In this document: in pieces, positions 1 to 55,851 of the stretch
How positions within the stretch are numbered: position 1 is the first letter of the stretch
Layout of the letters: each line of letters begins with the position of its first letter
Assembly: GCF_045037415.1 (NCBI RefSeq)
Contig: NZ_CP173438.1
DNA: 64,000 nt
Origin: Escherichia coli
GTDB taxonomy: Bacteria; Pseudomonadota; Gammaproteobacteria; Enterobacterales; Enterobacteriaceae
Direction: 5' to 3' (one strand)
Notes under the pieces: model-generated
Database searches by the model: none
Told to the model about the DNA's origin: nothing
Seen by the model: only the letters and a program-made list of their open reading frames with translations
Program-made: the position numbers and the translations under genes

Positions 1-552
1 CCGCTGGAGCGCCAGGGCTTACAAAATCTGCTTAACGAGCGCAAGATTATTCGTGCGGCACAAGAAAACGGCACAGTTGCCATTAATAACCGAATCCCGC
101 TGCAATCTTTAACGGCGGCAAATATCATGGTTGAAGGTTCGATTATCGGTTATGAAAGCAACGTTAAATCGGGCGGTGTTGGGGCAAGATATTTTGGGAT
201 CGGTGCAGACACGCAATACCAGCTTGATCAGATTGCCGTGAACCTGCGTGTCGTCAATGTGAGTACCGGTGAGATCCTCTCCTCGGTGAACACCAGTAAG
301 ACGATACTTTCCTATGAAGTTCAGGCGGGGGTCTTCCGCTTTATTGACTACCAGCGCTTGCTGGAAGGGGAAGTAGGTTACACCTCGAACGAACCCGTTA
401 TGCTGTGCCTGATGTCGGCTATCGAAACAGGCGTCATTTTCCTGATTAATGATGGTATCGACCGCGGCCTTTGGGATTTGCAAAATAAAACAGAACGGCA
501 GAATGACATTCTGGTGAAATACCGCCATATGTCGGTTCCACCGGAATCCTGA
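1..552 (+). CDS. csgG: Curli secretion lipoprotein CsgG, 5'-truncated by window edge (C-terminal ~183 codons present)
   Basis: Frame 1 is open from position 1 to TGA at 550-552; translation matches CsgG C-terminus (…KYRHMSVPPES); the ORF-track start at 127 is an internal Met. Confidence 0.9.
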   Translation, partial: PLERQGLQNLLNERKIIRAAQENGTVAINNRIPLQSLTAANIMVEGSIIGYESNVKSGGVGARYFGIGADTQYQLDQIAVNLRVVNVSTGEILSSVNTSKTILSYEVQAGVFRFIDYQRLLEGEVGYTSNEPVMLCLMSAIETGVIFLINDGIDRGLWDLQNKTERQNDILVKYRHMSVPPES

Positions 553-563
553 TAGATAAAAAC

Positions 564-589
564 GCCGGAATTAATAATCCGGCATTTTA
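564..589. terminator. Bidirectional rho-independent terminator between convergent csgG and ycdZ
   Basis: Stem gccgga/tccggc (564-569/579-584) flanked by A-run upstream and T-run downstream, so it can terminate on either strand. Confidence 0.6.
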
Positions 590-603
590 CTGTTTAAGCG
601 AAA

Positions 604-631
604 GCGTGAGTGCCCCTCACGCTTTATTTTT
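604..631 (+). terminator. Second hairpin plus T-run downstream of csgG; overlaps ycdZ stop codon
   Basis: gcgtgag…tcacgc stem followed by tttattttt. Confidence 0.45.
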
Positions 632-1108
632 GATTTGCTGCTCACGGTGAGCGGTCTTCGTACTACGCGCCGCCAGCCACAGGCCGCTGTTTTTCATTGC
701 GTAACCAAATACCAGTCCAAGCGCCAGCGAAGGTAACACCAGTTTCCAGTCCCCCTGCCCGGCAAACGTCGCGCATGCGCCTATAAACGTCCCCGGAACA
801 AATGAAAGCAGCAGCTGTTTGGCCTGAATACACATCAGAAACGCGACAATACCGGTTATTACATAACCGAGAATTTCCAGATGTGGTGCCAGTGCACTAC
901 CGTAAATAATGACCATCGCCCACACCACGCCACTAAGCAGGGTTGCAGCGGAGATCGCCAGCCCTTTCAGCCCACCTTGCGGGCAGGCAAAGTAGGCCGT
1001 ACAGCCCAGGAAGCCCGCCCAGCTTAGTAAGCCCAGGGAAACAGCCACCCATCCCCAGATACCGGAGAGAATGCCTGTTGTGATTGCAATAGAGAGAAGT
1101 ATGTTCAT
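617..1108 (-). CDS. ycdZ: Inner-membrane protein YcdZ (DUF1097)
   Basis: ORF 617..1156; start set at ATG 1106-1108 giving 163 aa beginning MNILLSIAITTG; hydrophobic multi-TM sequence. Confidence 0.85.
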   Translation of the reverse strand: MNILLSIAITTGILSGIWGWVAVSLGLLSWAGFLGCTAYFACPQGGLKGLAISAATLLSGVVWAMVIIYGSALAPHLEILGYVITGIVAFLMCIQAKQLLLSFVPGTFIGACATFAGQGDWKLVLPSLALGLVFGYAMKNSGLWLAARSTKTAHREQQIKNKA

Positions 1109-1209
1109 GCCGCGCATGATAGCAGAAAACGCGGCCATGAATGAGATCGAGCACACATTTTATGCAACAACAAATTATCAGTTGCAGTTATGAGTGATGC
1201 AGATCACAT

Positions 1210-1764
1210 TTACTCTTCAGAATCTTCTTCCAGCTCGTCCCACATTGCACTAATAGCATCGCGGGTTAGCGGTGCCATGGTGCGCCAGAAAGGCGTAGTT
1301 GCATGGGCCTCCACTTTGCCAAGGAACGCACCACACCAGGGTAACAGATACTCACTGAACAGTGTTTCCAGTGCTTCGCTCTCATCTTCCGTTGACTGAT
1401 CTTCCAGCCAGGAAGCCGCAAGCAGCAATGTGCCGATGTGATCGGCTGGCGTATCCGCTAGTGGCATCCCTCGTTCGGAAAGAAAAGCGCGCACTTCCGC
1501 TTCCGTTGCGCCCTCAACCCATGCGCTACGATATGGCGGCACAGCACATTCATCGCCGATAAACAACGCATTGTAATCGGCAGAGACTTGCGTCATATCA
1601 CAGCTTTTCTGTAAACGCGTCAGTAACTCATCCTGCTCCAGTGGCCAGTTCGCAGCCAGTTTCCCCTCACGAATCAGGGTAAACAACGGCACCAGTAAAG
1701 GATCTTGCGGTTGGCGGTAATAGAGCGAACCCAGCACACGACAGAGGATAGAAAACTCGTTCAT
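1210..1764 (-). CDS. ycdY: TorD-family chaperone YcdY (partner of YcdX)
   Basis: 184-aa ORF MNEFSILCRVLGSLYYRQ…; 23 bp downstream of ycdX in same orientation. Confidence 0.9.
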   Translation of the reverse strand: MNEFSILCRVLGSLYYRQPQDPLLVPLFTLIREGKLAANWPLEQDELLTRLQKSCDMTQVSADYNALFIGDECAVPPYRSAWVEGATEAEVRAFLSERGMPLADTPADHIGTLLLAASWLEDQSTEDESEALETLFSEYLLPWCGAFLGKVEAHATTPFWRTMAPLTRDAISAMWDELEEDSEE

Positions 1765-1787
1765 TAATATATTTCCATTACTAGTAA

Positions 1788-2525
1788 TTAAAGGTCTGCA
1801 AATTCCGCAATCGGTGCCATACCGCGAGATTCAAGGAAGTTCAGTAAGCGGCGCGGAGAAACATTCAAAATGCGTTCTGGCGGAAAATCTACCGCGTCGA
1901 GGATTTTAAGACACTCTTCAAATTCCCCCATGGTAAATGCAGTGTGAGAATCCGAGCCTAATGCCACCCAACCTCCAGCGTCACGTACCGCTGCAGCTAC
2001 CGCACGACAGTTGTCTTCACTGCCCTTACGTGAGTGTAAAAATGAGGAATTATTGATTTCCAGCGCCACCTGATATTTCGCGGCTGCTTCAGCAACGGCT
2101 TTAACATCTATCTCATATTTCGGATTTCCGGGATGGCTTATTATATGCACATTGCCGCTGGCGATAGTGGCGATCATCGCTTGTGTATTGGTTGCTTTGT
2201 CATGTGGCGCAAAAACCGGCTCATGAAAACCGGCAATAATCAGATCCAGCGAATCAAACATTTTGCCGCTGCAATCAATTTCACCATCAACATTTTTAAT
2301 GTTAGCTTCGATGCCGCGCAGGATCCCTACCCCATCAACCACTCGCGGCCAGATACGCATGTTAATGAAGTGCCAGTGATGCGGCGCATCTTCCATATCC
2401 GGGCCATGATCGGTGATCGCAAAAAGTTTAATGCCCTTTTGTTTGGCCTGGGCAATGTAATCACTCAATGTGCTATATGCATGCGTGCTGGCAACGGTAT
2501 GCATATGAAGGTCGACGGGATACAT
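1788..2525 (-). CDS. ycdX: PHP-family zinc phosphoesterase YcdX
   Basis: 245-aa [21 protein letters not shown]… with PHP-domain His motifs. Confidence 0.9.
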
Positions 2526-2579
2526 AACTCTCTCCTGTATTCAATTCCCGCCAAGGATAGCAGGAAACCTGATGCTTTA

Positions 2580-3557
<978 letters not shown>

Positions 3558-3751
3558 TTATCGTTATGATCTACAAAGGCCACCAGCATAACAAATCCGT
3601 GGTCGGTGACAAAAAAAGCAAATTTCGCTTATTAAAACTACATATTGATTGAAGTTTGAATAATCGAGCGATTTTTTAAAAAAGTTTGTTGACCTCAGGT
3701 CATGATTTCCCTAAATTAGCGCCCGTTCCAGCAAGACAGGAACGACAATTT

Positions 3752-3839
3752 GGTGAGGTGTCCGAGTGGCTGAAGGAGCACGCCTGGAAAGTGTGTATAC
3801 GGCAACGTATCGGGGGTTCGAATCCCCCCCTCACCGCCA
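3752..3839 (+). tRNA. serX: tRNA-Ser (GGA anticodon), serX-type
   Basis: 88-nt sequence GGTGAGGTGTCCGAGTGGCTGAAGG…GGTTCGAATCCCCCCCTCACCGCCA with long variable arm and encoded CCA. Confidence 0.95.
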
Positions 3840-3850
3840 TATTTAAAGAA

Positions 3851-3880
3851 GAGCTCGTACGAAAGTACGAGCTTTTTTTT
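3851..3880 (+). terminator. serX rho-independent terminator
   Basis: Stem gagctcgtac/gtacgagc with GAAA loop followed by T8. Confidence 0.8.
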
Positions 3881-3943
3881 CGTATATTGCATACACCGGG
3901 GGGATGAGAAGCCCCAGGCGGAGGTTGACAACTAGCGACAGAC

Positions 3944-5311
3944 TCATTCATCATCCTTGCGGTTGATAAGAATTTCTGCCTCTTTTACTACCACCTTATT
4001 ACGCCCGGTCTCTTTCGCCTCGTAAAGTGCGTTATCAGCCAGTTGATAGATCTCCTTAGGGTTTAACTCATTTTTCTGCGTTACAACAGCGCCAATACTA
4101 ATCGTCACTTTTTGTGGTATGGCGTATTCAGGATTATCGCCAGTTAAACGTTCAACATTTTCCCGAATCCTTTCCGCTAAAGCTTTCGCACATTCAGTAT
4201 CGATCTCCGTCAGCAAGACGCCAAACTCTTCGCCGCCAACGCGCGCTAAAAGGTCATCTGGTCGTATGCTTTTCCCAATGATATTCACCACTGTCTTTAT
4301 CACTTGATCGCCAACCGGATGTCCCCAGGTGTCGTTGACTTTTTTGAAGTGGTCAATATCCATAATCATGACGCAATAAGGTGTTTTTTTGGCCGATGCT
4401 GATTGAACCGTCAGTTCATTAAAAAAATAATTTCTGTTGAATATATTGGTTAAGGGATCGCGATGTGCAATGTCCTTTGTTACTCGTAGCGCACTGAATA
4501 TATGGCACATAAAAATTACCAAAACGGTTAACTTACTGACTACTTCAATAGTGCGACTAATATACCAAATGGACACGCTATACCTGCTCATAAATAACAG
4601 AGAGATATTGTACAGCACGGCACAAAAAGCAATCACCGACACCCCGTTCCAGATATCACAGCGTAAACCATTAAAGTATAGATTAACCGAAAGCAAGGTT
4701 AACCACATGAAAATCATTATGGTAACATATGAGGCTTTCCAAACCACCTGACCATTTTCATTGGTTAACTCGGCAATGTGTAAATCGTAGCTCTCATAAT
4801 GGCTAGAAAATATGTGAGCAACTATCGGCCCCCCAAGAACAAAAAACAAACTTATGCACAAAGTCACTTTTTTGGAAAATAAATTGCGCTGTTTTGTGTT
4901 TTCACTAACTTTATTTATCAATGCCAGAAATATTAACATGCACAAACTCATCTGACGAAACAAATAATAAATTGCAATGTCATTTTGAACAACACTGCTT
5001 GTCAAACGCCCCTCAATAATTTGCTGAATGATAATGACGGTTTTAACAAAGTAAATCAAACAACTTAGAAAAGCCAAACTAAGTATACAGTTTGAAAATT
5101 GCCTACGGTCATAAATGAAATACAACTGCATAAAAATAAATGCAACAGTATCGATAAAAAATAAAGCAATCATAACCATCAGATAGGTTGATCGTGGAAC
5201 AACTTCCTCAACGGTTGGCTGATTGAACCAACTATTAACCAAAACCAATGCAAGCCCAAACAATAAGCTCACTAATACAGTACTACTAATTCCCAAATAG
5301 TCTTTTTCCAT
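3944..5311 (-). CDS. dgcT: Membrane-anchored GGDEF diguanylate cyclase DgcT (YcdT)
   Basis: ORF 3944..5434; start set at ATG 5309-5311 (MEKDYLGISS…); multi-TM N-terminus and C-terminal GGDEF domain (RVGGEEFG); strongly AT-rich. Confidence 0.85.
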   Translation of the reverse strand: MEKDYLGISSTVLVSLLFGLALVLVNSWFNQPTVEEVVPRSTYLMVMIALFFIDTVAFIFMQLYFIYDRRQFSNCILSLAFLSCLIYFVKTVIIIQQIIEGRLTSSVVQNDIAIYYLFRQMSLCMLIFLALINKVSENTKQRNLFSKKVTLCISLFFVLGGPIVAHIFSSHYESYDLHIAELTNENGQVVWKASYVTIMIFMWLTLLSVNLYFNGLRCDIWNGVSVIAFCAVLYNISLLFMSRYSVSIWYISRTIEVVSKLTVLVIFMCHIFSALRVTKDIAHRDPLTNIFNRNYFFNELTVQSASAKKTPYCVMIMDIDHFKKVNDTWGHPVGDQVIKTVVNIIGKSIRPDDLLARVGGEEFGVLLTEIDTECAKALAERIRENVERLTGDNPEYAIPQKVTISIGAVVTQKNELNPKEIYQLADNALYEAKETGRNKVVVKEAEILINRKDDE

Positions 5312-5662
5312 AAAGCTACACCAACCTGTAGGTTGTAGATCCCTTTTTATTATTAATAGATATAAGAACTGTACTGTTGTCAATATGAAAATCCACCCAC
5401 AAACAATACCGATGATGATAGTTGCAGAATGCAATTATTATCACTTTAATGCTTTATACATTTTTTGCTGCAAGGCAGGCGCAAATACTTATAAAAGATT
5501 ATAATAAAATCCTTATAAAGCATTAATTAATAGATACATTAGGAATAACAATTAAATCCGTGAGTGCAGTAGCGCTGCCTTTCATCAGGACTTTCGAAAA
5601 ATCCGAAATCATGCATCGGAATTTACTGATTTAATTATTTTAATCCTAATTTATTTTGAAAA

Positions 5663-5896
5663 AGGTATTGGGATTTATGCCGTATTCCTGAAGATCCTCA
5701 TCATTGGAATGGATTTTCGGGCGAGAAAAGGATTTTATATGGACACTCTGCTCATCATTTCTTCTTCTCATCATCAACAATTCACGTCTCTCTTCCGCGT
5801 TTAATAACGGATTATGAGATGCAAAAATATCTTTCTTTTCAGTTACCTGTAATTAGATACAGAGAGAGATTTTGGCAATACATGGAGTAATACAGG
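5663..5896 (+). promoter_or_regulatory. Probable pgaA 5' leader with GGA (CsrA-type) motifs, including at the SD/start codon
   Basis: AT-rich 594-bp divergent ycdT/pgaA intergenic; GGA motifs at about 5727, 5884, 5894; leader extent taken from literature memory (~234 nt), not visible in sequence. Confidence 0.35.
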
Positions 5897-8320
5897 ATGT
5901 ATTCAAGTAGCAGAAAAAGGTGCCCGAAAACCAAATGGGCTTTGAAAATTCTTACTGCTGCATTTTTAGCAGCGAGTCCCGCGGCGAAGAGTGCTGTTAA
6001 TAACGCCTATGATGCATTGATTATTGAAGCTCGCAAAGGAAATACTCAGCCAGCTTTGTCATGGTTTGCACAAAAATCAACACTCAGTAATAACCAAATT
6101 GCTGACTGGTTACAGATTGCCTTATGGGCCGGGCAAGATAAACAGGTTATTACCGTTTACAACCGCTATCGTCATCAGCAATTACCAGCGCGTGGTTATG
6201 CAGCTGTCGCCGTCGCTTATCGTAACCTGCAACAATGGCAAAACTCGCTTACACTGTGGCAAAAGGCGCTCTCTCTGGAGCCGCAAAATAAGGATTATCA
6301 ACGGGGACAAATTTTAACCCTGGCAGATGCGGGTCACTATGATACTGCGCTGTTTAAACTTAAGCAGCTTAAATCTGGAGCACCGGACAAAGCCAATTTA
6401 CTCGCAGAAGCCTATATCTATAAACTGACGGGGCGTTATCAGGATGAATTACGGGCGATGACAGAGTCATTACCTGAAAATGCATCTAAGCAACAATATC
6501 CCACAGAATACGTGCTGGCATTACGTAATAATCAACTAGCTGCCGCGATTGACGATGCCAATTTAACGCCAGATATTCGCGCTGATATTCATGCCGAACT
6601 GGTCAGACTGTCGTTTATGCCTACGCGCAGTGAAAATGAACGTTATGCCATTGCCGATCGCGCCCTCGCCCAATACGCTGCATTAGAAATTCTGTGGCAC
6701 GATAACCCAGACCGCACTGCCCAGTACCAGCGTATTCAGGTTGATCATCTTGGCGCGTTATTAACTCGCGATCGTTATAGAGACGTTATTTCTCACTATC
6801 AGCGTTTAAAAAAGACGGGGCAAATTATTCCGCCCTGGGCGCTATATTGGGTTGCGTCGGCTTATCTCAAAGATCAGCAGCCGAAAAAAGCACAGTCAAT
6901 AATGACCGAGCTCTTTTATAACAAGGAAACCATTGCCACGGATTTATCCGATGAAGAACTTGCGGATCTCTTTTACAGCCACCTGGAGAGTGAAAATTAT
7001 CCCGGCGCGCTAACTGTCACCAAACATACCATTAATACTTCGCCGCCTTTCCTTCGGCTAATGGGCACGCCTACGAGCATCCCGAATGATACCTGGTTAC
7101 AGGGGCATTCGTTTCTCTCAACCGTAGCAAAATATAGTAATGATCTTCCTCAAGCTGAAATAACAACCAGAGAACTTGCTTATAACGCACCAGGAAATCA
7201 GGGACTGCGCATCGATTACGCGAGTGTGTTACAAGCCCGCGGTTGGCCTCGTGCGGCAGAAAATGAATTAAAAAAAGCAGAAGTGATCGAGCCACGTAAT
7301 ATTAATCTGGAGGTTGAACAAGCCTGGACAGCATTAACGTTACAAGAATGGCAGCAGGCAGCTGTCTTAACCCACGATGTTGTCGAACGTGAACCGCAAG
7401 ATCCCGGCGTTGTACGATTAAAACGTGCGGTTGATGTACATAATCTTGCAGAGCTTCGTATCGCTGGCTCAACAGGAATTGATGCCGAAGGTCCAGATAG
7501 TGGCAAACATGATGTCGACTTAACCACCATCGTTTATTCACCACCGCTGAATGATAACTGGCGCGGTTTTGCTGGATTCGGTTATGCCGATGGACAATTT
7601 AGCGAAGGAAAAGGGATTGTTCGCGACTGGCTGGCAGGTGTTGAGTGGCGGTCACGTAATATCTGGCTCGAGGCGGAGTACGCTGAACGCTTTTTCAATC
7701 ATGAGCATAAACCCGGCGCGCGCCTGTCTGGCTGGTATGATTTTAATGATAACTGGCGTATTGGTTCGCAACTGGAACGCCTCTCTCACCGCGTTCCATT
7801 ACGGGCAATGAAAAATGGTGTTACAGGCAACAGCGCACAGGCTTATGTTCGCTGGTATCAAAATGAGCGGCGTAAGTACGGTGTCTCCTGGGCTTTCACT
7901 GATTTTTCCGACAGTAACCAGCGTCATGAAGTCTCAATTGAGGGTCAAGAACGCATCTGGTCTTCACCATATTTGATTGTCGATTTCCTACCCAATCTGT
8001 ATTACGAACAAAATACAGAACACGACACCCCATACTACAACCCTATAAAAATGTTCGATATTGTTCCGGCATTTGAGGCAAGTCATTTGTTATGGCGAAG
8101 CTATGAAAATAGCTGGGAGCAAATATTCAGCGCAGGTGTTGGTGCCTCCTGGCAAAAACATTATGGCACGGATGTCGTCACCCAACTCGGCTACGGGCAA
8201 CGTATTAGCTGGAATGACGTGATTGATGCTGGCGCAACGCTACGCTGGGAAAAACGACCTTATGACGGTGACAGAGAACACAACTTATACGTTGAATTCG
8301 ATATGACATTCAGATTTTAA
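5897..8320 (+). CDS. pgaA: PGA (poly-beta-1,6-GlcNAc) outer-membrane export porin PgaA
   Basis: 807-aa ORF with signal peptide, TPR region and C-terminal beta-barrel; heads pgaABCD. Confidence 0.95.
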   Translation: MYSSSRKRCPKTKWALKILTAAFLAASPAAKSAVNNAYDALIIEARKGNTQPALSWFAQKSTLSNNQIADWLQIALWAGQDKQVITVYNRYRHQQLPARGYAAVAVAYRNLQQWQNSLTLWQKALSLEPQNKDYQRGQILTLADAGHYDTALFKLKQLKSGAPDKANLLAEAYIYKLTGRYQDELRAMTESLPENASKQQYPTEYVLALRNNQLAAAIDDANLTPDIRADIHAELVRLSFMPTRSENERYAIADRALAQYAALEILWHDNPDRTAQYQRIQVDHLGALLTRDRYRDVISHYQRLKKTGQIIPPWALYWVASAYLKDQQPKKAQSIMTELFYNKETIATDLSDEELADLFYSHLESENYPGALTVTKHTINTSPPFLRLMGTPTSIPNDTWLQGHSFLSTVAKYSNDLPQAEITTRELAYNAPGNQGLRIDYASVLQARGWPRAAENELKKAEVIEPRNINLEVEQAWTALTLQEWQQAAVLTHDVVEREPQDPGVVRLKRAVDVHNLAELRIAGSTGIDAEGPDSGKHDVDLTTIVYSPPLNDNWRGFAGFGYADGQFSEGKGIVRDWLAGVEWRSRNIWLEAEYAERFFNHEHKPGARLSGWYDFNDNWRIGSQLERLSHRVPLRAMKNGVTGNSAQAYVRWYQNERRKYGVSWAFTDFSDSNQRHEVSIEGQERIWSSPYLIVDFLPNLYYEQNTEHDTPYYNPIKMFDIVPAFEASHLLWRSYENSWEQIFSAGVGASWQKHYGTDVVTQLGYGQRISWNDVIDAGATLRWEKRPYDGDREHNLYVEFDMTFRF

Positions 8321-8328
8321 GGATAAAT

Positions 8329-10347
8329 ATGTTACGTAATGGAAATAAATATCTCCTGATGCTGGTGAGTATAATTATGCTCACCGCGTGCATTAGCCAG
8401 TCAAGAACATCATTTATACCGCCACAGGATCGCGAATCTTTACTCGCCGAGCAACCGTGGCCACATAATGGTTTTGTGGTGATTTCATGGCATAACGTTG
8501 AAGACGAAGCTGCCGACCAGCGTTTTATGTCAGTGCGAACATCAGCACTGCGTGAACAATTTGCCTGGCTGCGCGAGAACGGTTATCAACCGGTCAGTAT
8601 TGCTCAAATTCGTGAAGCACATCGAGGAGGAAAACCGCTACCGGAAAAAGCAGTAGTGCTGACTTTTGATGACGGCTACCAGAGTTTTTATACCCGTGTC
8701 TTCCCAATTCTTCAGGCCTTCCAGTGGCCGGCTGTATGGGCTCCCGTCGGCAGTTGGGTCGATACTCCAGCGGATAAACAAGTGAAATTTGGCGATGAGA
8801 TGGTCAGTCGAGAATATTTTGCCACGTGGCAACAAGTGCGAGAAGTTGCGCGTTCCCGGCTCGTTGAGGTCGCTTCTCATACATGGGATTCTCACTACGG
8901 TATTCAGGCTAATGCCACCGGCAGCTTATTGCCTGCATATGTAAATCGTGCATATTTTACTGACCACGCACGGTATGAAACCGCAGCAGAATACCGGGAA
9001 AGAATTCGCCTGGATGCTGTAAAAATGACGGAATACCTGCGTACAAAGGCTGAGGTAAATCCACACGTTTTTGTTTGGCCTTATGGCGAAGCGAATGGCA
9101 TAGCAATAGCGGAATTAAAAAAACTCGGTTATGACATGTTCTTCACCCTTGAATCAGGTTTGGCAAATGCGTCGCAATTAGATTCCATTCCGCGAGTATT
9201 AATCGCCAATAATCCCTCATTAAAAGAGTTTGCCCAGCAAATTATTACCGTACAGGAAAAACCACTACAACGGGTAATGCATATCGATCTTGATTACGTT
9301 TATGACGAAAACCGCCAGCAAATGGATCGCAATATTGATGTGCTAATTCAGCGGGTAAAAGATATGCAAATATCTACCGTGTATTTGCAAGCATTTGCTG
9401 ATCCCGATGGTGATGGGCTGGTTAAAGAGGTCTGGTTTCCAAATCGTTTGCTACCAATGAAAGCAGATATTTTTAGTCGGGTTGCCTGGCAATTGCGTAC
9501 CCGCTCAGGTGTAAACATCTATGCGTGGATGCCGGTATTAAGCTGGGATTTAGATCCCACATTAACGCGAGTAAAATACTTACCAACTGGGGAGAAAAAA
9601 GCACAAATTCATCCTGAACAATACCGCCGTCTCTCTCCTTTCGATGACAGGGTCAGAGCACAAGTTGGTATGTTATATGATGATCTTGCCGGACATGCTG
9701 CTTTTGATGGCATATTGTTCCACGATGATGCTTTGCTTTCAGATTATGAAGATGCCAGTGCAGCGGCTATCGCGGCTTATCAGCAAGCTGGCTTTAGCGG
9801 GAGTCTGAGCGAAATTCGACAAAACCCGGAGCAATTTAAACAGTGGACCCGCTTTAAAAGTCGTGCGTTAGCTGACTTCACTTTAGAACTTAGTGCGCGC
9901 GTAAAAGCCATTCGTGGTCCACATGTTAAAACTGCACGAAATATTTTTGCACTTCCGGTAATACAACCTGAAAGTGAAGCCTGGTTTGCACAGAATTATG
10001 CTGATTTCCTAAAAAGCTATGACTGGACCGCTATTATGGCTATGCCTTATATGGAAGGCGTCACAGAAAAATCGGCTGATCAATGGTTAATACAATTGAC
10101 CAATCAGATGAAAAGCATCCCGCAGGCTAAAGACAAATCAATTTTAGAATTACAGGCACAAAACTGGCAGAAAAATGGTCAGCATCAGGCTATTTCTTCA
10201 CAACAACTCGCTCACTGGATGAGCCTATTACAACTGAATGGAGTGAAAAATTATGGTTATTATCCCGACAATTTTCTGCATAACCAACCTGAAATAGACG
10301 TTATTCGTCCTGAGTTTTCAACAGCCTGGTATCCGAAAAATGATTAA
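8329..10347 (+). CDS. pgaB: PGA N-deacetylase lipoprotein PgaB
   Basis: 672-aa ORF with lipobox (LTACIS) and polysaccharide deacetylase domain. Confidence 0.95.
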
Positions 10348-12129: not shown

Positions 12130-13194
12130 TTAACTGTATGCATGTAGCGTACGTTGGCAAAGTGCCGAACGTACGCAATCCTCTTTACCGAATCGGACGA
12201 TCCCGACCATTTCATCCTCTTCGAAACGTTCCAGCGCGTCACTTAATCCGGAGCGCACGCCGCGAGGCAAATCGCATTGCGTGATATCACCGTTGACGAT
12301 AACCGTCACGTTCTCCCCGAGGCGGGTTAAAAACATTTTCATTTGCGCGGCAGTCACATTCTGCGCCTCGTCAAGAATGACGACTGCATTTTCAAAGGTA
12401 CGTCCACGCATATAGGCGAACGGCGCAATTTCCACCTTCCCTATTTCCGGTCGCAGGCAGTACTGCATAAAGGAAGCCCCTAAGCGACGGACCAGCACGT
12501 CGTAGACCGGGCGAAAATAGGGAGCAAACTTTTCTGCGATATCACCAGGTAAGAAACCAAGATCTTCATCGGCTTGCAGAACTGGACGGGTGACGATAAT
12601 CCTGTCAACATCCTTATGTATCAGGGCCTCTGCCGCTTTTGCTGCGCTGATCCAGGTTTTTCCGCACCCGGCTTCACCCGTGGCAAATATCAGCTGCTTA
12701 CTCTCAATAGCCTTCAGATAGTGCAATTGCGCTTCATTTCGCGCGAGGATGGGCGAGGTATCGCGACTGTCGCGGGCCATACCAATGGCTTCTACGCCGC
12801 TCATTTGCACAAGCGAGGTGACCGATTCTTCTTCACGCTGCTTATGGCTGCGCGAATCCCGTCTCAGCACACGTTTTGCCTCGCGACGAGCTTTGATCAC
12901 TGCTTTTTGTCTTCCCATGGAGAGCACCTTGAGTTGTTTGTATTCATCACACGCGCCGTTGGCAGCGCGATTATGCGCACGAACATCAGAGGGTTGGCTT
13001 CCTTGTAAGCCATAGTTTGCTTTTGGATAAAATGCCGAAAAACGGCTACGCGCACCGTTTACGGCGTCGGTAACACATGAAAAGAAAGGATGAGGTTGAA
13101 AATACAAAGTGACGAGATGACTACCGGAGGAGAAATCTCCGCGAGTGGTGGCGCGCTGATTCTCTAAAACATGTCCAGTACAGGACGTTACCAT
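12130..13194 (-). CDS. phoH: PhoH, phosphate-starvation-inducible ATPase
   Basis: 354-aa ORF with Walker A GEAGCGKT. Confidence 0.9.
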   Translation of the reverse strand: MVTSCTGHVLENQRATTRGDFSSGSHLVTLYFQPHPFFSCVTDAVNGARSRFSAFYPKANYGLQGSQPSDVRAHNRAANGACDEYKQLKVLSMGRQKAVIKARREAKRVLRRDSRSHKQREEESVTSLVQMSGVEAIGMARDSRDTSPILARNEAQLHYLKAIESKQLIFATGEAGCGKTWISAAKAAEALIHKDVDRIIVTRPVLQADEDLGFLPGDIAEKFAPYFRPVYDVLVRRLGASFMQYCLRPEIGKVEIAPFAYMRGRTFENAVVILDEAQNVTAAQMKMFLTRLGENVTVIVNGDITQCDLPRGVRSGLSDALERFEEDEMVGIVRFGKEDCVRSALCQRTLHAYS

Positions 13195-44676: not shown

Positions 44677-44849
44677 GGTCAGTGCGTATTTGCAGCGCAA
44701 CGTTATCAAAGGTGATCATCGTCGATTTACAAAAAATGCACTTTGCACCCAAAGGGTTTCGCTCCGTCACATCGAATGCCGATGTGCGGTACTGTGAACC
44801 ATGGCAACATGGACAGCGGAAATGGAGATGTTGAGTAATAACGGCAACC

Positions 44850-45062
44850 TTAGAGCGTAACAACGTTCGCTGCCGCGGGACCACGTTGCCCCTGCTCAAT
44901 AGAAAATTCAACTTTCTGATTTTCGTTCAGCGTGCGGAATTCATTGCTCTGGATGGCAGTGAAATGGACGAAAACGTCTTTGCTGCCATCATCAGGAGTG
45001 ATAAAGCCAAAACCTTTATCTGCGTTAAACCATTTTACTAAACCAGTCATTTTATTAGACAT
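44850..45062 (-). CDS. cspG: Cold-shock protein CspG
   Basis: 70-aa [24 protein letters not shown]…. Confidence 0.9.
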
Positions 45063-45347
45063 ATTTTACTTCCTTCATTTTGGGCCTTTCGGCAAACAGG
45101 GCTTTAATACAGAAACTACTTAGTGTTCAGGAGAGAGACTCAAAAGAAGGGGATAATGCCTGATAATGAGAACTGCTTTAGTAAACTACTTTGTATGCTG
45201 TCTGTCTTTCAAACCGACGCAGCTATTAACGCATGATAATTGAGATTAAGCAAATTTTATTTTAGCCGTCCGGCGGTCTTAAATATCGCTGGCTTTATTT
45301 TATTAACCCCGTATAGTGCAGCGCAGTATTTTCAGTAAGGAATTTGT

Positions 45348-55763: not shown

Positions 55764-55851
55764 GGAAGTGTGGCCGAGCGGTTGAAGGCACCGGTCTTGA
55801 AAACCGGCGACCCGAAAGGGTTCCAGAGTTCGAATCTCTGCGCTTCCGCCA
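55764..55851 (+). tRNA. serT: tRNA-Ser (UGA anticodon), serT-type
   Basis: 88-nt GGAAGTGTGGCCGAGCGGTTGAAGG…GGTTCCAGAGTTCGAATCTCTGCGCTTCCGCCA; anticodon loop CTTGAAA; -10 TATAGT with GC-rich discriminator just upstream. Confidence 0.95.

Follow-up and report, generated by a model that had tools for sequence, protein, structure and literature searches.

The serX–dgcT junction of an Escherichia coli genome as a probable ancestral, unoccupied state, and the probably derived configuration of K-12

Strains of Escherichia coli differ in what stands between the tRNA gene serX and the diguanylate cyclase gene dgcT (ycdT). In K-12 MG1655 the order from dgcT is IS3D (insE4/insF4), the pseudogene ymdE, ycdU, ~735 bp of intergenic sequence and serX, whereas the DNA analyzed here, a stretch of 64,000 nucleotides referred to as the window, is without IS3D, ymdE and ycdU. 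The locus thus raises the question whether the window has lost a segment that its ancestor possessed, or retains a junction that was never occupied. With a probability of about 0.85, we take the window to represent the ancestral, unoccupied serX–dgcT junction and the K-12 configuration to be derived. An initial annotation of the window had named IS3, ymdE and ycdU as occupants of this place in K-12 and pointed out that they are missing here; alignment to K-12 and other E. coli genomes agrees on both counts, with ymdE and ycdU at this position in K-12 and no homologues of them in the corresponding interval of the window.

Anatomy of the serX–dgcT gap

serX (plus strand) and dgcT (minus strand) are convergent, and the space between them is exactly positions 3840-3943, i.e., the end of serX is separated by 104 bp from the stop codon of dgcT (TGA at 3944-3946; the ATG is at 5311). 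The features of the locus, and some further RNA features of the window, are collected in Table 1. The RefSeq annotation was taken from strain 4/1-1, which matches the window over 25 kb with 100.0% identity, and DgcT homologues carry precomputed Pfam assignments to PF17158 and PF00990. The ghrA region is colinear with that of K-12 at 97.6% identity. A promoter consensus match is found upstream of serX at 3689-3717, and transcription of the tRNA gene would start from this upstream promoter, proceed towards dgcT and halt at the hairpin that follows the gene. Since CCA is encoded in serX, maturation of the tRNA requires trimming only.

Table 1 Features of the serX–dgcT locus and other RNA features of the window
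Feature	Position	Strand	Basis or remarks
ghrA (ycdW), conserved left flank	2580-3518	-	RefSeq annotation of strain 4/1-1, coordinates transferred
serX, tRNA-Ser(GGA), encoded CCA	3752-3839	+	ARAGORN; Rfam tRNA model, 53.8 bits; tRNA-Ser annotation in identical genomes
Island attachment core CCCCCTCACCGCCA, last 14 nt of serX	3826-3839	+	Single copy
Intrinsic terminator hairpin	3845-3880		Inverted repeat; fold -21.3 kcal/mol, z = -6.8 versus shuffles
5' fragment of RtT-type repeat unit	3881-3941 (61 nt)	+	Similarity to K-12 array units
89 bp that the OI-47 insertion would have replaced in the K-12, W and O157 lineages	3901-3989		Breakpoints at 3900 and 3989/3990
48 bp specific to the window-type allele	3942-3989	-	2-nt spacer, dgcT stop and last codons; tail ...KEAEILINRKDDE and stop
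dgcT (ycdT), MASE4-GGDEF diguanylate cyclase, 455 aa	3944-5311	-	Translation; RefSeq annotation
pgaA, first gene of pgaABCD, conserved right flank	5897-8320	+	807-aa ORF; RefSeq annotation
Ysr251	12135-12328	+	Rfam, 188.7 bits
Two adjacent naRNA4 copies	33935-34114	+	Rfam, 75-81 bits
cspA-type thermoregulator leader	44796-45218	-	160 bits
Second serine tRNA, anticodon TGA	55764-55851	+	

serX is an intact, full-length tRNA gene, and the attachment core used by islands in related strains lies within it. A second copy of the last 19 nt of serX was found nowhere in the 64-kb window, with up to three mismatches allowed, and the 104 bp between serX and dgcT hold no integrase or island gene. Searches with the protein YcdU and with the complete K-12 interval and O157 island as queries detected no homologue of YcdU, ymdE, IS3 or OI-47 anywhere in the 64 kb; the sole match of the K-12-interval and O157-island queries is the RtT repeat unit discussed below. 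A repeat search of positions 3000-6000 gave no att-like repeats, and the repeats that it did return are the inverted repeat of the terminator and short two-copy families of 12-27 nt with a chance-like appearance. The absence of an integrase remnant and of a duplicated tRNA 3' end, both noted in the initial annotation, is thus upheld by homology and by the search of the flanks. Judged from its sequence, the serX site in the window is unoccupied and consists of attB only, because the attachment core is present once and no island is therefore integrated; the 14-nt core would accordingly be available as a free attB for integrases of the OI-48/SRL type.

The hairpin downstream of serX has a G+C-rich core stem at 3852-3873, an A-rich tract upstream and a run of eight T residues at 3873-3880. 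The stem is perfect over 16 bp and is followed directly by the T8 run, which is the structure of a rho-independent terminator, and a terminator-like site is also listed on the minus strand of the same hairpin. The hairpin probably acts in both directions, ending the serX transcript on the plus strand and the convergent dgcT transcript on the minus strand. It shares with bidirectional terminators between convergent genes the perfect G+C-rich hairpin, the A-rich tract on one side and the T run on the other, but differs from them in having a weak T-tract (CTTCTTTAAA) towards dgcT. Between the last T of the run, at 3880, and the stop codon of dgcT there are 63 nt, close to the earlier estimate of about 65 bp.

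The initial annotation had described this gap as holding nothing, which is correct with respect to islands, but not with respect to repeats: the 61 nt that follow the terminator are the 5' fragment of an RtT-type unit. The unit begins at 3821, inside serX, and comprises the last 19 nt of the tRNA gene, the terminator and the 61 nt up to 3941, i.e., 121 of 181 nt or 0.67 unit. This segment gives four BLAST matches in K-12, where 3.4 tandem copies of the 181-bp unit (positions 5962-6584 of the K-12 locus sequence, L001) follow serX, each opening with the last 19 nt of serX. Identity to the full K-12 array units is 92.6-93.4%, the serX-proximal K-12 unit is included in a flank alignment of 96.8%, and positions 3821-3900 are 97.5% identical to the terminal partial unit of K-12. 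The units are labeled 'RtT sRNA' in RefSeq, and two complete K-12 units are Rfam RtT matches at 46.3 bits (gathering score 45). The window gives no RtT match at the Rfam gathering score or at E ≤ 1; of the unit it has retained no more than the 5' part. The RtT family was first described downstream of tyrT. The repeats at serX resemble those of the tyrT operon (Rfam RF00391): the DNA that follows the serX terminator in the window corresponds to the 5' part of an RtT-type unit, of which the complete form opens, as at tyrT, with the 3' end of the tRNA and occurs in tandem in other strains; in contrast to tyrT, the window has 0.67 unit, and an RtT RNA of full form cannot be made from it. A literature search on the RtT/tyrT tandem repeats yielded nothing usable.

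The number of RtT units downstream of serX varies, from 0.67 in the window (3821-3941) to ~1.4 in strain W (L002), 1.67 in E. coli 100248 (L038, 453-830) and 3.4 in K-12; an array is also present at 11370-11847 of L005, a locus described below. In L005 one unit is short, apparently because 'GGGGTTCGA' within the unit recombined with the T-arm of the tRNA. Each 181-bp unit also contains the 14-nt island att core, and the pseudo-3' ends formed in this way could be mistaken for att scars of islands, or could be usable as secondary att sites. As far as the repeat structure tells, the three extra serX 3' ends of K-12 are such a 181-bp tandem array and not att repeats of an island, and scans that use a duplicated tRNA 3' end as the signature of an island would be misled at serX.

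A sigma-70-like consensus match lies at 3925-3954 on the plus strand (TTGACA, a spacing of 18 nt, CATCAT; 10 of 12 consensus positions), directed antisense into the 3' end of dgcT; it is a consensus match only, and its TTGACA results from one C missing relative to the RtT consensus TTCGACA. The sub-threshold Rfam matches at E ≤ 1 in 3000-6000 (sX4, MicC, Thr leader, STnc320 and a plastid 3' UTR family) were rejected as chance or tRNA-driven, since each of them coincides in part with the tRNA or the terminator and scores far under the gathering threshold of its family.

Islands and insertion elements at the locus in related strains

The attachment core is used in relatives of the window. The initial annotation had called tRNA 3' ends classic sites of island integration, and serX proves to be a real one. 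In O157 (L037) OI-48 lies between serX and ycdU, together with an integrase and a 14-bp direct repeat, and in strain SSGw1 (L003) an island bearing an integrase is located at the last 14 nt of serX, between the tRNA gene and a dgcT junction of the window type. In both genomes a tyrosine integrase adjoins the displaced 14-nt repeat. The 14-bp direct repeat TGGCGGTGAGGGGG has been reported to flank OI-48 (PMC3064760), and OI-48/TAI of O157:H7 and SRL-PAI of Shigella flexneri, both of them islands with P4-type integrases, use the same tRNA and have the same core as flanking repeats (PMC3064760); compared with OI-48 and SRL-PAI, the core of the window is single and is accompanied by neither integrase nor island. 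The integrases of SSGw1 (L003 4638-6014) and O157 (L037 5421-6800) are placed on the dgcT/ycdU side, next to the displaced repeat and not next to the intact tRNA gene. They have different protein accessions, and their neighbors follow in the same order, i.e., a YfjI-family gene, an HTH regulator, an IS1 pseudogene and a hypothetical gene of 1818 bp.

A different segment adjoins dgcT in O157:H7. This segment, OI-47, measures ~33 kb and extends between dgcT and the ycdU side; it contains an EAL-domain gene, a regulator, a fimbrial operon, a two-partner-secretion adhesin, a cluster of fatty-acid/polyketide type, an ABC transporter, a full-length ACP S-malonyltransferase gene and ycdU. vmpA has been placed in OI-47 (review PMC4076661), and we identified the EAL-domain gene as vmpA from that report and because it occupies the end of the island next to dgcT. 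The ymdE pseudogene of K-12 and W corresponds to the 3' part of the malonyltransferase gene, which IS3 has cut. The boundary on the serX side, '...caccggg/tgcccccgccc...' (slash, breakpoint), is common to K-12 and O157 and is situated, in K-12, 61 nt past the end of the tRNA, inside an RtT unit: the arrays of K-12 and O157 end at unit offset 80, corresponding to position 3900 of the window, and the breakpoint on the dgcT side is at 3989/3990. The flanks of the K-12 interval and of O157 OI-47 are orthologous to those of the window (ghrA–serX and dgcT–pgaABCD, 96-97.6% identity), whereas the window is without the inserted segment, keeps the 89 bp that these strains lost, and encodes another DgcT tail. 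A search of the OI-47 borders for microhomology, a target-site duplication, an integrase or any other mechanistic signature gave nothing convincing.

IS3 stands 10 bp past the dgcT stop in K-12, and in genomes that bear IS3 the homology to O157 breaks off 11 bp beyond the stop. On this comparison, the IS3/ymdE/ycdU segment of K-12 is best described as the IS3-truncated end of OI-47 and not as an island integrated at the 3' end of a tRNA gene, which would make ymdE and ycdU remnants of OI-47 instead of core genes lost by the strain studied here. IS3 next to the dgcT stop, followed by truncated ymdE, occurs both in K-12 (L001 3246-4503) and in W (L002 9191-10353), which points to one old insertion and deletion common to the two, or else to a hot spot of insertion.

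Polarity of the junction and alternative explanations

The junction of the window, '...GCGACA(G/A)A-stop-TCATCATCC...', is colinear by alignment in four other contexts. In one E. coli genome (L033) positions 1-10308 of the window are aligned in a single uninterrupted block at 96.0% identity, and in E. coli 100248 the same junction is preceded by 1.67 RtT units, one of them a full 181-bp unit and the other truncated. A third context is L005, a locus that is labeled E. coli and belongs to a GTDB species representative; its nucleotide identity to the window is 90% on the ghrA side and 81-83% on the dgcT–pga side, and its DgcT protein is 78% identical. dgcT of L005 ends in ...TEAENLMNWKDDD, with the stop codon placed directly against the RtT unit at the same point as in the window; the letters at the junction are GGCGACAG/AATTAATCATCATCC in L005 against AGCGACAG/ACTCATTCATCATCC in the window (slash, junction). 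Further RtT units lie between this junction and serX in L005. The fourth context is a plasmid-borne copy of pga–dgcT, present on two contigs (L034/L035), which has the same junction at 91.5% identity. The polarity is thus read from one clearly separate species (L005) together with divergent copies from within the species and from plasmids. L005 came from a search of species-representative genomes for DgcT, in which it was the only informative one of 27 loci; the other 26 are GGDEF proteins that match the catalytic domain only and one 214-bp fragment, and E. albertii, E. fergusonii, E. marmotae and the E. coli representative were not among the loci returned.

The plasmid-borne copy is a pgaABC–dgcT segment (1-7000) on contigs labeled Salmonella enterica, which resemble conjugative plasmids and contain genes for TraG/TraT or Rep3/integrase. 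The start of the captured segment falls within the T run of the terminator of serX; the segment retains the RtT fragment (junction at 6465-6549) and abuts an element of ~317 bp (6536-6852) with IS26-type inverted repeats GGCACTGTTGCAAA, of which 13-14 of 14 positions match. This arrangement suggests that an IS26-family element may have mobilized the segment from an Escherichia chromosome with a junction of the window type.

A history in which the ancestor carried a segment like that of K-12 or O157, and a deletion fused the RtT array to a truncated dgcT, would account for several features of the locus. The RtT unit next to dgcT is cut at 121 of 181 nt, as a breakpoint might leave it, the region is prone to deletion in O157 (PMC3064760), and IS3 is present at this place in K-12 and W. 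Such a fusion is, however, difficult to reconcile with the 48 bp at 3942-3989. Homology to K-12 ends at position 3941 of the window and resumes at 3987-3990, and the intervals of K-12, W and O157 contain no counterpart of the segment between, only chance 9-14-mers; the short allele, including its DgcT tail, is consequently not obtainable from the long one by deletion. The same 48 bp are conserved in L033, L038, L034 and L005, and an identical junction is found in lineages that are 96%, 91.5% and 81-90% identical to the window. The distribution of the protein ends points in the same direction, since the window-type tail is encoded by DgcT homologues 99, 90, 88, 87 and 76% identical to the query, whereas RDVVNFCESP, the tail of K-12, is mainly that of proteins with 89-95% identity, apart from one outlier at 75% (P0032). 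The available outgroups, L005 and L033, of which one is a separate species, have the short allele, and the window has no IS3 remnant. We accordingly regard the secondary loss of a K-12/O157-like segment as highly improbable.

The frequency of the alternative states was determined in 5,426 complete E. coli genomes from RefSeq. The junction of the window, with positions 3846-4045 covered, is present in 1,397 of these genomes, and serX and dgcT are contiguous in 1,159; ycdU with its serX-side boundary was found in 2,605 and an intact vmpA–dgcT end in 411. About 1,280 genomes have no match to the 3' region of dgcT queried here; serX was found in 5,425. The ~1,280 dgcT-negative genomes are consistent with published strains in which serX–ghrA is retained and pgaABCD and ycdT are missing (PMC5635171). 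The first 25 kb of the window are 100.0% identical to many human isolates, and one genome with the window junction is labeled O25b:H4-ST131; the labels of the matching genomes suggest that the window belongs to phylogroup B2/ST131. The serX–dgcT state is known and ordinary strain-to-strain variation of the locus, it opens no new question of general interest, and the value of the present analysis is mainly interpretive.

The population data also bear on the possibility that an island of the OI-48, SRL or PAI-serX type was formerly integrated at serX and was excised precisely through the 14-bp repeats. Excision via these repeats has been documented for OI-43 and OI-48 (PMC3064760), and ~240 genomes, the difference between 1,397 and 1,159, have the dgcT-side junction without contiguity to serX; the one inspected, SSGw1, has the integrase-bearing island between the two. 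Precise excision leaves no scar and nothing in the sequence argues for it, and the site is identical in many genomes, as seen from the 1,159 contiguous cases and from the many isolates with a 100% identical 25-kb flank. A past excision of this kind in the window is very unlikely, and it would be compatible with an ancestral serX–dgcT junction rather than an alternative to it. An artefact, in which an island or RtT repeats had been collapsed in the assembled window, might be considered given that tandem repeats of 181 bp can collapse in short-read assemblies, but with the same contiguous arrangement in 1,159 RefSeq genomes of complete level, of which many show 100% identity over 25 kb, its probability is next to nil.

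In the preferred reading, that of an ancestral, unoccupied junction, the window has only an RtT array at its minimal copy number (0.67) between the terminator and the dgcT stop, the first 19 nt of the unit being the 3' end of serX. We infer the order of events, and the role of IS3 in the deletion, as follows. OI-47, of ~33 kb and with ycdU, full-length ymdE (ACP S-malonyltransferase), fatty-acid/polyketide genes, an ABC transporter, the two-partner-secretion adhesin, fimbriae and the EAL phosphodiesterase vmpA as its cargo, would have inserted once, in an ancestor of lineages that include K-12, W and O157:H7. The insertion would have replaced positions 3901-3989 of the window and thereby given DgcT a new C-terminal tail of 10 residues. 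IS3 would then have inserted 10 bp past the dgcT stop in the K-12/W lineages, and an associated deletion would have removed most of OI-47 and left IS3, ycdU and a 3' remnant of ymdE.

The two C-terminal ends of DgcT

DgcT of the window ends in ...RNKVVVKEAEILINRKDDE and that of K-12 in ...RNKVVVRDVVNFCESP, and the two unrelated tails, encoded at 3944-3989 (minus strand) of the window and at 3198-3235 of L001, are found across E. coli. Homology between RDVVNFCESP and KEAEILINRKDDE was considered and rejected, since a comparison by eye gives a codon-level match of ~40%, which is near random and indicates non-homologous replacement. The existence of two tails would be explained by the position of the OI-47 insertion breakpoint within the last codons of dgcT.

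A functional consequence can be envisaged, although we consider it unlikely. OI-47 would have rewritten the last 13 codons of dgcT and the 3' UTR, such that DgcT of K-12, W and O157 would be chimeric, with an island-derived tail running into IS3 or vmpA, while strains with the window junction (one of them labeled O25b:H4-ST131) and the outgroup would retain the ancestral tail KEAEILINRKDDE, followed by a 3' UTR that derives from RtT and ends at the terminator shared with serX. Should the tail or 3' UTR influence the stability or activity of DgcT or the decay of its mRNA, the control of c-di-GMP and of PGA-dependent biofilm could differ systematically between lineages, and K-12 would be an atypical model for DgcT. 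A literature search on DgcT/PdeT yielded nothing usable.

A more distant DgcT orthologue (63% amino acid identity) is encoded next to pgaA on a metagenome contig (L032, 4876-8103). It was set aside as an informant on polarity, as the contig has neither serX nor RtT repeats 3' of dgcT; dgcT is followed there by a terminator of its own and a CadC-like regulator, and the protein ends in a third tail, TDGRLPDAYA. The absence of serX from this arrangement implies that the pga–dgcT pair predates its association with serX.
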